DNA of 64,000 bases from Candidatus Multivorans sp. (GCA_965208755.1 OZ242353.1:3138671-3202670), one strand, 5' to 3'. Numbered from the stretch's first letter, positions 19,083 to 23,192 are shown. The notes: generated from the letters alone by a model not told the origin. Translations and numbers: made by a program.

Positions 19083-22000
19083 ATGCCGGTCTCACGACAA
19101 CCGGTCCCCGTCGGCGACCACATCAGAAACAAGGTACTTCCTGAAGGGATGACCGTGACGGAGGCCGCGAAGATTCTGGGCGTCACCCGGGTAGCGCTCT
19201 CAAGTCTCTTGAACGGCCGAACCTCGTTGTCTCGCCAGATGGCGGTCCGCCTAACGGCGTTCGGCGCCGATGCCGACGAGCTACTCGGGTACCAGGAAGA
19301 AGCGCTGCGAAAGCGCCGCCGAGAAGAGGAGAGGAAGTTGACCAGACGGAGCTACGTGCCGCCCTTCCTGCAAATCACTGCCTCCCAGATCCACGACTGG
19401 GCGAGCAAAGGTGACGAGGCGCGTAGCCGCTTGCCGGTTCTCTTGCGGAGGCTGATCCGCTCGACCGGGGACGAACTTCGCCGCGTGGAGTTTCCGGGCT
19501 TCGGCGAAGCGCAGCGGCACGGGTGGGATGGCCAGGTGGAAGCTGGCAGGAGGACGCTCTGGATTCCAGAGGGGAGGTCCGGATGGGAACTCAGCACCCG
19601 CCAAGACCCCGGCGCGAAGGCGAATGATGATTTCCGTGGACCGCGATCGAAGCTACCGGAAGACGTTCGGGCCGAAACGACATTCGTCTTCGTTTCGTCG
19701 CGAAAGTGGCCGGGCAAGACGGACTGGGAAGAAGCGCGCAAGGCAGAGGGCCGCTGGAAGGACGTACGGGCTCTCGACGCGAGCGACCTTGAACAGTGGC
19801 TTGAGGACTCAATCGAGGGACAGGTCTGGATGGCCGAGCAGCTCGGCCTGCCGTCTTTGCACGACTGCATGACTCTGAATCGAGCTTGGCAGGAGTGGTC
19901 CGAGGCCAGCGATCCACCGATGACGGAGGTGCTCTTTCGCCCGGCGGTAGTCGAGCACTGCAGGAAGGTGGTGTCTTGGCTTGAGGCGGAAACGCCAGAG
20001 CGGCCCCTTTACGTGGCTGCGGATTCCAAGGAGGAAGCGCTGGCGTTCCTGGCGTGCCTACTTCGCGACGAGCGTGTGCCGGCCGCTTTCCCCGATCGTG
20101 TGGTTGTCGTCAACTCGGCGGTGACCGTTCGAACTCTGGCGCCGTCGACGTCCCGGTTCATTCCGATCGTGGCCGGCAAGGAGGCGGAGCGCGAACTCGC
20201 CTCCGCGTACCGGCGACGGCACTGCATCGTCGTGCGCCCAAGAAACGCAGTCGACCGAGATCCAGACGTTTCTCTCGGTCTCGTGCGCCACGCGACGTTT
20301 AGAGACGGTCTGATGGCCATGGGCCTGAAGCGTGACGAGATCGATCACCTGGCCCGCGTATCAGGGCGTTCACCGACCGTGTTGAGGCGGCGCCGTTCCG
20401 CGCTCGATGCGATTCGAGAGCCGTGGTGGGCTGAGAAGACTGAAGTCGCTCGCCAGCTGGTGCCGCTGACACTGGTCGGCGCTTGGCACGCCGAATCGAG
20501 GGCGGACCAGGAGGTGCTGAAGGCGCTTGCGGATCGGCCGTTCGATCAGATTGAAGAAGATGTCGCGGCATTACTCGGCTCCAACGACTGCCCCATCTGG
20601 TCAGTCGACCAGCACCGGGGTGTGGTGTCCAAGTTCGATGGGCTCTTCGCCCTAGGCCGGTACATGACTTCCGGGGACCTTCGTCGCTTCCTAGCAGTGG
20701 CCGAGAACGTGTTGTCGGAAGCAGACCCGGCCTTGGACCTGCCCCGGGACCAAAGGTGGATGGCGCAACTCGATGGGAAAGTGCGTGATCACTCGAACGC
20801 ACTACGCACCGGTGTCTGTGAGACGCTCGTCCTGTTGGCGGCCCACGGCAACGAGCTGTTTCGCAAGAGACTGGGGCTGGATCTGGAGACCGAAGTGGCC
20901 GGCCTTTTCAGGCGGCTCCTTAGGCCCGAGGGGGACGAGGTTCCGCTGACGACCGCGACGCTTGAGTCGTATGAGCGGGATCTTCCGATGCTCGCCGAAG
21001 CGGCGCCGGAAGAGTTTCTGAGTCTGGTGGAGTCGGATCTCGACAGCGGGAACTCGGCGGTGCGCGGACTCCTCAGGCCGGTCGAGACGGACATTTTCAT
21101 TGGTTGTCCACGTGCAGGCCTCCTTTGGGGCCTCGAGTGCCTTGCATGGAACCCGTCGAGCTTCTCGCGTGCAGTGCTGATTCTCGGGAGAATGGCGAAG
21201 ATCGAGATTGACGACAACTACGTCCACAAGCCGATCCATAGCCTGGAGGCCGTCTTCCAATCCGGCGCACCTCAGACTGCGGCTCCCTTGAGCCGGCGCG
21301 TGGAGGCCTTGAAGCTGCTTTGTCACCGAGTTCCAGAGATCGCGTGGCACGTTTGCATGAAGGAGGTTCGTGAGGACCGGCGCGACGACAACTATCGGCC
21401 GCGTTGGGGTGGAGACGCATCCGGGGCTGGTCGCGACGTGCCCCGTGAGGAGGCCGAGCAGTTTGTTCGGGCGGCACTCGGCCTTTCGCTGGACTGGCCC
21501 AAAGGACTCGACGCTTCGAAGCTCGGCGACCTGATCGACCGCCTCGTTGTCATTTCCGACGCGGACCGAGAGAAGGTCTGGTCGCTCGTTGAGGACTGGA
21601 TGGTAGACGGGAGGAGCGATTCGGAGAGGGCAAAGTTGAGGGAACGGCTGCGTCGCTTCGGCTACGCCACGGCCCCGCTGGGCGACCGAGTGGACCCGGT
21701 CCTGAGGGAGCGAGCGAAGGCGCTTTACGACCGCCTTGTGCCTAGCGATCCGACCGCCCGCCACGAATGGCTGTTCGCGGAGCGCTGGATTCACGACTGG
21801 CCCGAAGACGCGGCCGAGGCCGAGGACTACTTTGGGCGGGAGGAGCGAATTGAGGAGCGGCGCCGGGAGGCGATGAAAGAGGTCTGGTCGAGCGCCGGCC
21901 TTTCCGGCGCACTTGCCTTGCTCCCGTCAAGCAGCGCTCCAGACATCGTCGGACGACACGCTGCGTCCTGTGTCACCGACGTGACCGGCAGGACCGAAGT

Positions 22001-23192
22001 TCTTCAGTCGTGCCTGTCCGCCGATGGGTCGGCGAGTCTTGACCCGGAGGGTCGGAAGTTGGATGGGTTCTTGCGAGGGTTCATCCTGGCTGTGGACGCG
22101 GAAGCTCGCGAAGCGCTGCTTGTGCGAGTAGCCGCCGAACTCACGCAGGCCCAGACGTTTCGGCTCCTTCTCTGCGCTCCCTTCTGTGGCCAGACCTGGC
22201 GACTCGTGGGCGGGCAGGGGCAGGATGTCGAAGAAGAGTACTGGAGCGAAGTGGAGGTACCTCTGATCGGCCGCTTCTCCGAGCCCGAGTGTGTCGAGTT
22301 GGTTGATCGGCTTCTTGAAGCAGCACGACCGTTCGCGGCCTTCAACCTCGCGTCGAGGAATTGGGACGCAGTCGAGACTTCGCGCCTGATTCGGCTCCTG
22401 AGGGCCTTGGCTGCAGCCCGCGAGGTGGACGCCCTGGTCGAACAAGGGATGTTCTCCTTCTACATCTCCAAAGCACTTGCGTCTCTCGACGGTCGCACGG
22501 GCGTACCGTGGGACGAACTCGCGGACCTTGAGTTCGAGTTCTCTGCGGTCCTGAGGTACGAGGAGCGTGGTACTCCCAACCTTGAGCGGCGAATCGCCGA
22601 GTCGCCCCGGTACTTCGTTTGGCTGCTTGGCCGCGTTTACCGGCGAGCGGACGGGGGCGATGATCCGGAAGGATGGCCGGCGCCGGGCACTGAGCGAGGC
22701 CGTCGCGTTCATGAACTCGCAAGCTCTGCGCTGGAGAACGCTGCCCGGATTCCCGGGACAGACGAGAATGGCGAAATCGATGCAGAGAAGCTCCGAGCTT
22801 GGATTGGGGACGTGCGGCGGCTAGCTGCCGAAGTCGGGCGAGTGGAATGCGCCGAGGTTCGTGTTGGTGAACTCCTCGCACGAAGGCTGCCGGTTGAGGG
22901 TCGCCCGTGGCCGGAACGACCGATTTGCGAAGGCCTGGAAGCAGTGGCCACGCGGCAGATTGGGAGCGGGTTCAGCACTGGTGCGATCAATGCGCGCCGC
23001 GCTCGCACACGCGGTAGTGTTGGCGACGAATCGGACTCCAGCATGGCTTCGAAGTACCGGGCCTGGTCGGACGCGCTTGCCGCGGAGTACCCGTTCGTGA
23101 GTCGAGCATTGAAGAGCGTTGCCAGGTTCTACGAGGATTCAGCGGCTCACTGGGCTTCAGACGAGGAACTGCAAATGCGGTTGAGAAACTGA
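19083..23192 (+). CDS. 1,369-aa protein of unknown function with an N-terminal HigA/XRE-type HTH, first gene of the type I R-M island
   Basis: Long ORF with consistent codon bias. Residues ~12-70 (GDHIRNKVLPEGMTVTEAAKILGVTRVALSSLLNGRTSLSRQMAVRLTAFGADADELLGYQ) match the HigA-antitoxin HTH pattern. I could not assign any family to the remaining ~1,300 aa. Confidence 0.85.
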   Translation: MPVSRQPVPVGDHIRNKVLPEGMTVTEAAKILGVTRVALSSLLNGRTSLSRQMAVRLTAFGADADELLGYQEEALRKRRREEERKLTRRSYVPPFLQITASQIHDWASKGDEARSRLPVLLRRLIRSTGDELRRVEFPGFGEAQRHGWDGQVEAGRRTLWIPEGRSGWELSTRQDPGAKANDDFRGPRSKLPEDVRAETTFVFVSSRKWPGKTDWEEARKAEGRWKDVRALDASDLEQWLEDSIEGQVWMAEQLGLPSLHDCMTLNRAWQEWSEASDPPMTEVLFRPAVVEHCRKVVSWLEAETPERPLYVAADSKEEALAFLACLLRDERVPAAFPDRVVVVNSAVTVRTLAPSTSRFIPIVAGKEAERELASAYRRRHCIVVRPRNAVDRDPDVSLGLVRHATFRDGLMAMGLKRDEIDHLARVSGRSPTVLRRRRSALDAIREPWWAEKTEVARQLVPLTLVGAWHAESRADQEVLKALADRPFDQIEEDVAALLGSNDCPIWSVDQHRGVVSKFDGLFALGRYMTSGDLRRFLAVAENVLSEADPALDLPRDQRWMAQLDGKVRDHSNALRTGVCETLVLLAAHGNELFRKRLGLDLETEVAGLFRRLLRPEGDEVPLTTATLESYERDLPMLAEAAPEEFLSLVESDLDSGNSAVRGLLRPVETDIFIGCPRAGLLWGLECLAWNPSSFSRAVLILGRMAKIEIDDNYVHKPIHSLEAVFQSGAPQTAAPLSRRVEALKLLCHRVPEIAWHVCMKEVREDRRDDNYRPRWGGDASGAGRDVPREEAEQFVRAALGLSLDWPKGLDASKLGDLIDRLVVISDADREKVWSLVEDWMVDGRSDSERAKLRERLRRFGYATAPLGDRVDPVLRERAKALYDRLVPSDPTARHEWLFAERWIHDWPEDAAEAEDYFGREERIEERRREAMKEVWSSAGLSGALALLPSSSAPDIVGRHAASCVTDVTGRTEVLQSCLSADGSASLDPEGRKLDGFLRGFILAVDAEAREALLVRVAAELTQAQTFRLLLCAPFCGQTWRLVGGQGQDVEEEYWSEVEVPLIGRFSEPECVELVDRLLEAARPFAAFNLASRNWDAVETSRLIRLLRALAAAREVDALVEQGMFSFYISKALASLDGRTGVPWDELADLEFEFSAVLRYEERGTPNLERRIAESPRYFVWLLGRVYRRADGGDDPEGWPAPGTERGRRVHELASSALENAARIPGTDENGEIDAEKLRAWIGDVRRLAAEVGRVECAEVRVGELLARRLPVEGRPWPERPICEGLEAVATRQIGSGFSTGAINARRARTRGSVGDESDSSMASKYRAWSDALAAEYPFVSRALKSVARFYEDSAAHWASDEELQMRLRN

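Follow-up and report, generated by a model that had tools for sequence, protein, structure and literature searches.

What kind of protein is encoded by the giant gene that stands directly before the type I restriction-modification (R-M) genes of a Candidatus Multivorans sp. genome? We addressed this question for positions 19083–23192 (+ strand) of a 64,000-nucleotide stretch of that genome (GCA_965208755.1 OZ242353.1:3138671-3202670); the whole stretch is hereafter called the window. A first-pass annotation, made from the sequence alone, had described an orphan protein of 1,369 amino acids (aa) with a DNA-binding head and had proposed that it either gates the R-M system or acts as an independent abortive-infection factor. 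Based on sequence comparison and structure prediction, we read it, with modest confidence, as a single-gene, autoregulated, Avs-like abortive-infection receptor that would have dispensed with the nucleotide switch. This reading draws on the order of the domains, the missing P-loop, a promoter/operator that co-varies with the helix-turn-helix (HTH) head, the location in the mobilome and among defence genes, and the hypervariable C-terminal solenoid.

Family and architecture of the protein

The open reading frame (ORF) was real and intact. As annotated, it formed one unbroken frame of 1,369 codons, from the ATG at 19083 to the TGA at 23190–23192, and homologues spanned its full length. The peptides quoted in the first-pass annotation were all recovered from the translation at about the positions given there: GMTVTEAAKILGVTRVALSSLLNGRTSLSRQMAVRL (aa 22–57), RVEFPGFGEAQRHGWDGQVEA (aa 134–154), WIPEGRSGWELSTRQD (aa 160–175), TTFVFVSSRKW (aa 199–209), PLYVAADSKEEALAFLACLL (aa 308–327) and DRVVVVNSA (aa 338–346). 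The protein was no orphan but a member of a large, unnamed bacterial family. A word-indexed search returned 1,591 homologues, the best 120 of which were 1,100–1,416 aa long (most approximately 1,330–1,380 aa) and 47–82% identical. An exhaustive search returned 5,859 cluster representatives (50% identity) at E ≤ 1e-3 and 2,384 at E ≤ 1e-30. The nearest relatives were encoded by Candidatus Multivorans metagenome-assembled genomes, and the family extended over more than 12 phyla as well as plasmids and viral contigs, with identities of 42–48% in Acidobacteriota, Chloroflexota, Proteobacteria, Firmicutes, Nitrospirota, Planctomycetota, Gemmatimonadota, Cyanobacteria and others. Members were found on conjugative plasmids and on 18 IMG/VR viral contigs, and phrog_18693, of unknown function, matched aa 98–1356 (E = 4.5e-112). 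Source databases listed it as "HigA family addiction module antitoxin". Neither the protein by itself nor a 117-sequence profile matched anything beyond the HTH in sequence searches of Pfam, NCBIfam and the PDB. The Pfam and PADLOC searches suggested in the first-pass annotation recognised the head and left the core unplaced, except for one module with a weak match to the PADLOC model PD-Lambda-4_A.

The structure was predicted with AlphaFold2 in two segments, each on a 66-sequence alignment. The models had a predicted local distance difference test (pLDDT) value of 86.5 and a predicted template modelling score of 0.79 for aa 1–640, and a pLDDT of 84.7 for aa 600–1369. Conservation was assessed in 117–135 diverse representatives with identities down to 32%. 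Behind the HTH head, aa 95–260 (19365–19862, + strand) formed a domain that is called nuclease-like on the basis of its modelled secondary structure, an α-β-β-β-α-β arrangement (helix 111–128, strands 130–136, 150–156 and 164–171, helix 176–185, strand 199–205) in the order of the PD-(D/E)xK core fold. Its motifs comprised R122, GWDG (D149), WE[FL][GS] (E169), K179-A-x-x-D183, W209 and D232. Of these residues, R122, D149, K179, W209 and D232 were invariant, and E169 and D183 were 99% conserved. A fold search of BFVD gave a weak match to a restriction endonuclease (E = 0.099). The D...(D/E)xK-like core without a conserved lysine that had been noted earlier was recognisable in D149, E169 and the fold order, with no lysine at E+2. 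The invariant K179, located 10 residues past E169 on the next helix, could stand in for it.

The centre of the protein consisted of a small, four-stranded α/β domain resembling a nucleotide-binding domain (NBD; aa 305–395, 19995–20267, + strand), in which β1 led straight into the ADSxxEAxAF helix and β4 carried IVVRPRN. It was followed by a helical domain (HD) and a winged-helix domain (WHD) at aa 396–528 (20268–20666, + strand) with a conserved SGRSPTxLRRRLS block. In a Foldseek search of the PDB with aa 1–640, Avs3 (8dgc, E = 8.7e-6) and Avs4 (8dgf, E = 4.3e-4) ranked first, followed by Apaf-1, Avs5, CED-4 and NRC4 (to E = 1.5e-2) and then by AAA+ clamp loaders (RFC) and ORC. These ranks, together with the modelled α/β, helical and winged-helix elements in the right order, are those of a tripartite NBD-HD-WHD fold and bear out the STAND/Avs-like layout that the first-pass annotation had pointed to.

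The remainder, aa 529–1369 (approximately 840 aa; 20667–23189, + strand), was all-helical and most similar in Foldseek to HEAT/ARM solenoids, e.g., CAP-G, importins and PP2A-A. The long helical C-terminal region remarked on earlier was accordingly modelled as an α-solenoid over the C-terminal 770 aa. It is the putative sensor and had diverged more than any other region. Compared with the syntenic locus L015, the flanking DNA of the window was 95–96% identical, and the neighbouring proteins HsdM, YefM, HsdR and HsdS were 96%, 98%, 88% and 48% identical, respectively. The giant protein was 60% identical as a whole, with 87% in the nuclease-like domain, 75% in the NBD-like domain and 44–47% in the last 590 aa. 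At the DNA level, the 3' third of the gene could not be aligned by blastn. A solenoid this variable is what diversifying selection or allelic exchange would be expected to produce in a specificity or sensor domain.

Truncated relatives also occurred. A short variant of approximately 920 aa, with the WHD and solenoid only, was found at L098 (5585–8679), at L119+L118 (a Photobacterium plasmid, where it spans the record origin) and at L110–L117, and similar short matches were present on a Shewanella OS117 plasmid and several viral contigs. A 106-aa ORF preceded it in both plasmids inspected for annotation (Buttiauxella and Photobacterium), and the one variant scanned, from Buttiauxella, had no PADLOC match. 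It may represent the system in split form. A tblastn search of two members against plasmids returned family members and short variants only.

Likeness to Avs receptors and loss of the P-loop

The sequence link to a known defence system was provided by PADLOC. The model PD-Lambda-4_A matched 22 of 36 diverse members (best E = 9e-8) and its sister model 9 of 36; the matches to PD-Lambda-4_A were to the same module and collinear each time. In the window protein, this module lay at aa 593–744 (20859–21314, + strand) and matched profile positions 517–660 of 1283 with 19.2 bits. In a 1,272-aa member that lacks the HTH, aa 599–740 matched positions 596–738 of 1283. PD-lambda-4A has been renamed Avs8A; it joins an Mrr nuclease to a STAND NTPase, and HK97-fold major capsid proteins activate it (bioRxiv 10.1101/2025.07.02.662641; PMC13581612). 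Its likeness to the family described here goes beyond the coordinates of the common solenoid module of 120–150 aa: the HTH-less core of approximately 1,270 aa is close in length to the 1,283 positions of the profile, and both have the same domain order, with an N-terminal nuclease-type domain, a STAND-like centre and a helical sensor. In KpAvs8, as in the family described here, the conserved nucleotide-binding residues are naturally absent (PMC13581612, Extended Data Fig. 11 legend; preprint Supplementary Fig. 16), which makes KpAvs8 a precedent for a nucleotide-independent Avs. Unlike Avs8, the family has an N-terminal HTH with a co-inherited operator, its P-loop is deleted throughout rather than degenerate in some members, and it extends across environmental phyla, whereas PD-Lambda-4 has been reported from Proteobacteria only (bioRxiv 10.1101/2024.10.26.620412).

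Avs3 and Avs4 were the best structural matches of aa 1–640 and resemble the protein in combining a nuclease effector (nuclease-like here), an NBD-HD-WHD module and a repeat sensor in one chain. However, both bind ATP, carry nucleases of the Cap4 or Mrr type in which the D...ExK motif is complete, and have no HTH, and they shared no detectable sequence similarity with the protein.

Several findings weigh against a receptor of the Avs type. In the 135-representative alignment, of which every fourth row was inspected for Walker A, β1 (309–313) ran into ADSKEEALAF without a GK[ST]. For Walker B, β3 (FIPIV, 360–364) was followed by xxx[D]xE, with no conserved acidic residue at the strand end. Remote plasmid homologues from Rhizobium, Arthrobacter and Shewanella also had no P-loop. 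The loss of Walker A, suspected from the window protein alone, therefore holds family-wide, and since no member inspected had a GK[ST], the apparent "degenerate NTPase" is a P-loop deletion of the whole family. Judged by these defining motifs, the protein is no STAND NTPase. The Foldseek template modelling scores (TM-scores) were low (0.18–0.26), as expected for multi-domain matches, and were reported without the aligned residue ranges. The PD-Lambda-4_A matches covered only the 110–160-aa module (approximately 10% of the length; 15–26 bits) and not the full profile, sequence similarity to Avs8 was confined to this module with no Mrr profile match, and Avs8 has a partner gene, Avs8B, while the family has no conserved partner. 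The nuclease assignment is the least secure step: the order of the fold elements and the conserved D, E and K residues agree with it, but the lysine is misplaced (E169+2 is G or S, so that the canonical D...(D/E)xK is absent) and the profiles were silent. Pfam scans of 36 members returned HTH families and no nuclease family. An hhalign comparison with a very small, three-sequence Mrr_cat_2 alignment, for which a type ISP nuclease domain used as query in a word-indexed search had yielded a single protein, gave a probability of 1.3%. Finally, the enrichment of defence genes near homologues (see below) was counted without a matched random control. Outside the STAND NTPases by its defining motifs and with one module in common with Avs8A, the protein most likely works like an Avs.

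The helix-turn-helix head and its operator

The N-terminal head (aa 1–70; 19083–19292, + strand), continued by a long linker helix to approximately aa 90, had been annotated as a HigA/XRE-type HTH. Four lines of evidence agreed with this: a Pfam HTH_3 match at aa 15–57 (E = 1.1e-5), a TIGR02607 HigA score of 39.8 bits (below the equivalog cut-off of 47.7), matches of the family profile to the YbaQ and HigA structures in the PDB (E = 4e-11 to 1e-7) and a Foldseek TM-score to HigA chains of approximately 0.7, normalised by the HigA chain. Remote members carried exchanged heads of other HTH classes (L010, 7728–11792; L011, 7764–11726). The head of a Rhizobium member was like that of R-M controller (C) proteins and matched the PADLOC R-M model Control_protein (E = 2e-14), a model that the window protein did not match, and an Arthrobacter member had a head like the HTH_17/mad1 models. 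Members without an HTH or with a swapped HTH retained the 1,270-aa core.

The gene was preceded by a sigma-70-type promoter, TTGACA-17 nt-TACGAT (19046–19074, + strand; 10/12 positions matching), the sole promoter-like site within 18.8–30.5 kb. Its −10 element ended 8 nt 5' of the ATG, so that the mRNA is probably leaderless. The promoter spacer held an exact palindrome, the operator candidate CGTAAAGC-ATC-GCTTTACG (19054–19072, no strand assigned), found once in the window (0.04 copies expected by chance) and only in this promoter; no further copy was present elsewhere in the window. The same layout was found in the orthologous loci L015, L018, L001 and L002. Across other phyla, 70 of the 87 upstream regions in a non-redundant set contained, with at most 10 mismatches, a 29-nt motif consisting of a −35 element, a 14-bp palindrome and a −10 element (TTGtATtGTGTAGCGCTACACgATACAaT), a level reached by 1 of 1,740 control windows; the operator position read GTGTAGCGCTACAC in 70/87 other loci. 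The upstream regions of HTH-less members did not contain the motif. Where the recognition helix was LG[VI]GRPALSN, the half-site was GTGTAGC, and where it was LGV[TS]RVALS[SN], the half-site was CGTAAAGC. This co-variation of half-site and recognition helix argues strongly, on comparative grounds, for binding of the head to its own promoter, which it probably also represses.

A HigA-type head, the database name and a promoter of the autorepressed type known from toxin–antitoxin (TA) operons would also fit a fused addiction module, in which a HigA-like antitoxin/repressor and a nuclease toxin stabilise plasmids or islands with no sensing of phages. Members were indeed located on plasmids beside par loci and in TA-rich regions. 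HigA antitoxins (TIGR02607; PDB 2ict, 6chv, 6f8h) share with the head its fold, its sequence type and a palindromic operator overlapping their own promoter. However, the HTH made up just 5% of the protein and stayed below the HigA cut-off, and the core was kept where the HTH was absent or of another class. No HigB/RelE-type or other toxin gene was found beside the giant gene, where the upstream neighbour was a divergent 3,443-aa ORF and no small toxin ORF was conserved. Plasmid stabilisation would also leave a hypervariable solenoid of 1,000 aa unexplained. We regard this explanation as very unlikely. A HigBA-type TA system proper was rejected, given the missing HigB partner, the score below the HigA cut-off and the retention of the core without a HigA head.

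The combination of HTH, NBD-HD-WHD and repeat sensor is also the architecture of the MalT/AfsR class of regulators, which depend on ATP binding. A STAND-type transcription factor resembling MalT, AfsR or LAL proteins would bind a small-molecule or protein signal with the solenoid and regulate targets with the HTH, and its nuclease-like domain would be dead, in line with the missing canonical lysine and P-loop. This we consider highly improbable. No conserved target genes lay alongside, the operator occurred in the gene's own promoter only, and the distribution was patchy, on mobile DNA across phyla at 42–48% identity. In addition, the acidic and basic residues of the nuclease core were invariant or 99% conserved family-wide, and the ATP binding on which such regulators depend is impossible here. 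A MalT/AfsR-type regulator was rejected on these grounds, namely target genes, operator, ATP binding and the conserved nuclease core.

For the Avs-like receptor, we propose the following sequence of events. The head would bind the palindrome between the −35 and −10 elements of its own promoter and keep a potentially toxic protein at a low level. The solenoid would then recognise a phage or plasmid protein by shape, and binding would lift autoinhibition, allowing the degenerate NBD-HD-WHD module to oligomerise without nucleotide, as proposed for KpAvs8. The oligomer would gather the N-terminal PD-(D/E)xK-like domains, by which DNA would be cut and the infection aborted. A further, rather doubtful idea is that the head acts as a switch: a resting receptor would repress its promoter, and capture of a phage protein with oligomerisation would derepress it, boosting the downstream hsdR-hsdS-hsdM genes at infection and coupling an innate sensor directly to R-M.

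If the receptor reading is correct, thousands of database entries named "HigA family antitoxin" or "HTH transcriptional regulator" would be Avs-like immune receptors. The STAND scaffold would also have been kept for assembly after complete loss of the nucleotide switch, which has so far been suggested for single Avs8 members only. A single gene together with its conserved 29-nt promoter/operator cassette makes an easily testable unit, and the hypervariable sensor between near-identical flanks amounts to a natural experiment on how receptors diversify. For annotation, the orphan label is corrected, domain boundaries are provided, and GWDG, WE[FL][GS], KAxxD, ADSxxEAxAF, SGRSPTxLRRRLS and LLWALExLAW serve as diagnostic motifs.

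Restriction-modification neighbours and the surrounding island

The type I R-M system was complete in the window. The hsdR gene (23227–26025, + strand), a neighbour outside the protein family, encoded ResIII, Helicase_C and EcoEI_R_C domains. It was followed by hsdS (26022–27506, + strand; PADLOC Specificity_I, E = 7e-104), a yefM-yoeB TA pair (28208–28761, + strand) and hsdM (28792–30309, + strand), the final gene of the island. The gap of 34 nt between the giant gene and hsdR (23193–23226) held no terminator-like site, consistent with the terminator-free junction annotated earlier. In L018, L015, L001 and L002, the corresponding spacer measured 129–257 nt and contained a conserved block of approximately 100 nt, possibly the hsdR promoter, that was deleted in the window. 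Since these relatives keep the longer spacer, the tight junction is a local deletion; it places hsdR 34 nt behind the giant gene, so that the type I R-M genes of the window are probably transcribed from the same autoregulated promoter. We take this for a local arrangement and not for a function of the family.

Type I hsd genes were the most frequent neighbour family and always lay within 3 kb. Outside the clade of the window they occurred at eight loci (L030, L036, L043, L052, L074, L081, L084 and L097), where they were unrelated (25–40% identity), and at least four arrangements were found overall. Other neighbours were type ISP R-M, PLD-helicases, AbiJ, AbiE, ImmA/IrrE and DUF4238. The first-pass annotation had suggested a check for defence genes near homologues, and enrichment beside R-M and other defence genes was found. 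Neighbour clusters were used only if confirmed by Pfam or tblastn, as clustering of neighbour ORFs yielded some spurious antisense ORFs in high-GC DNA (cluster 10). Most homologues were stand-alone single genes amid unrelated genes, with their own promoter and operator; approximately 85–90% of lineages had no R-M gene within 10 kb, and across 98 loci no partner ORF recurred. The description of the gene as head of an R-M operon is therefore accurate for the window and its close clade, but not for the family at large. One Candidatus Multivorans sp. genome (OZ242167.1) had two paralogues (L019 and L021), which shared 62% and 57% identity with the query and differed in the same respect, one with an R-M block and the other in a conserved Macro...Maf-VWA neighbourhood without R-M.

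The linkage raises the question of whether the protein serves the R-M system, either as a guard that senses its inhibition by phage anti-restriction proteins, for which PrrC with EcoprrI is the model, or as a C-protein-like timer of hsdR. The prominence of hsd genes in the window clade and in approximately eight distant lineages would agree with such a role. So would the block formed by the giant gene, hsdR, hsdS, the TA pair and hsdM, which occurred at two different chromosomal sites in the window clade, as well as its single promoter-like site and the continuous junction with hsdR. C proteins have an XRE-type HTH as well, with a palindrome in the promoter that precedes a restriction gene, and the Rhizobium head described above matched their model; the window HTH was not C-protein-like by profile, and most members had no R-M neighbour. 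PrrC and RloC anticodon nucleases resemble the protein as abortive-infection-type effectors encoded in or beside a type I hsd cluster, but are unrelated in fold and size, and the PrrC NTPase is functional. We nevertheless judge a guard or timer to be unlikely. Most lineages had no R-M gene within 10 kb. R-M-linked members kept their own promoter and operator, and in several the R-M operon was convergent and not co-transcribed. The operator was present once in the window, and the tight fusion to hsdR was the local deletion described above. Of the two roles proposed in the first-pass annotation, gating of R-M thus fails as a general rule, and the independent abortive-infection factor is the better half, because most homologues stand alone with their own promoter and operator and the window operator lies only in the gene's own promoter.

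The G+C content of the island (19–30 kb) was 63–66%, compared with 69–74% in the upstream and approximately 69–70% in the downstream flank, which confirms the lower value annotated earlier. Upstream, the DNA was 96% identical to L015 up to the very edge of the island, and the divergent 3,443-aa ORF (8507–18838, − strand) probably encodes a polyketide synthase, since Pfam places ketoacyl-synthase, acyltransferase and dehydratase domains in its L015 counterpart. The downstream flank contained a sulfate permease gene.

Within the island, HsdS specificity had switched beside the equally divergent solenoid (48% identity to L015, while HsdM was 96% identical). The insertion of yefM-yoeB gave the unusual gene order R-S-TA-M, and the slot between hsdS and hsdM varied among relatives, with additional small genes including DUF2283 in L002. 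A 72-aa ORF between hsdS and yefM (27743–27961, + strand) had no Pfam match; it was 100% identical in L015 and absent from L001 and L002, and its stretch KYRIV...IHVGITNNPERREQEH appeared GIY-YIG-like by eye. A second stretch of lower G+C content (63–65%) at 37072–43653 (− strand) was no obvious defence island and encoded TonB-dependent-receptor-like outer-membrane proteins (CarboxypepD_reg, Plug and beta-barrel domains) and a DHDPS-family enzyme.

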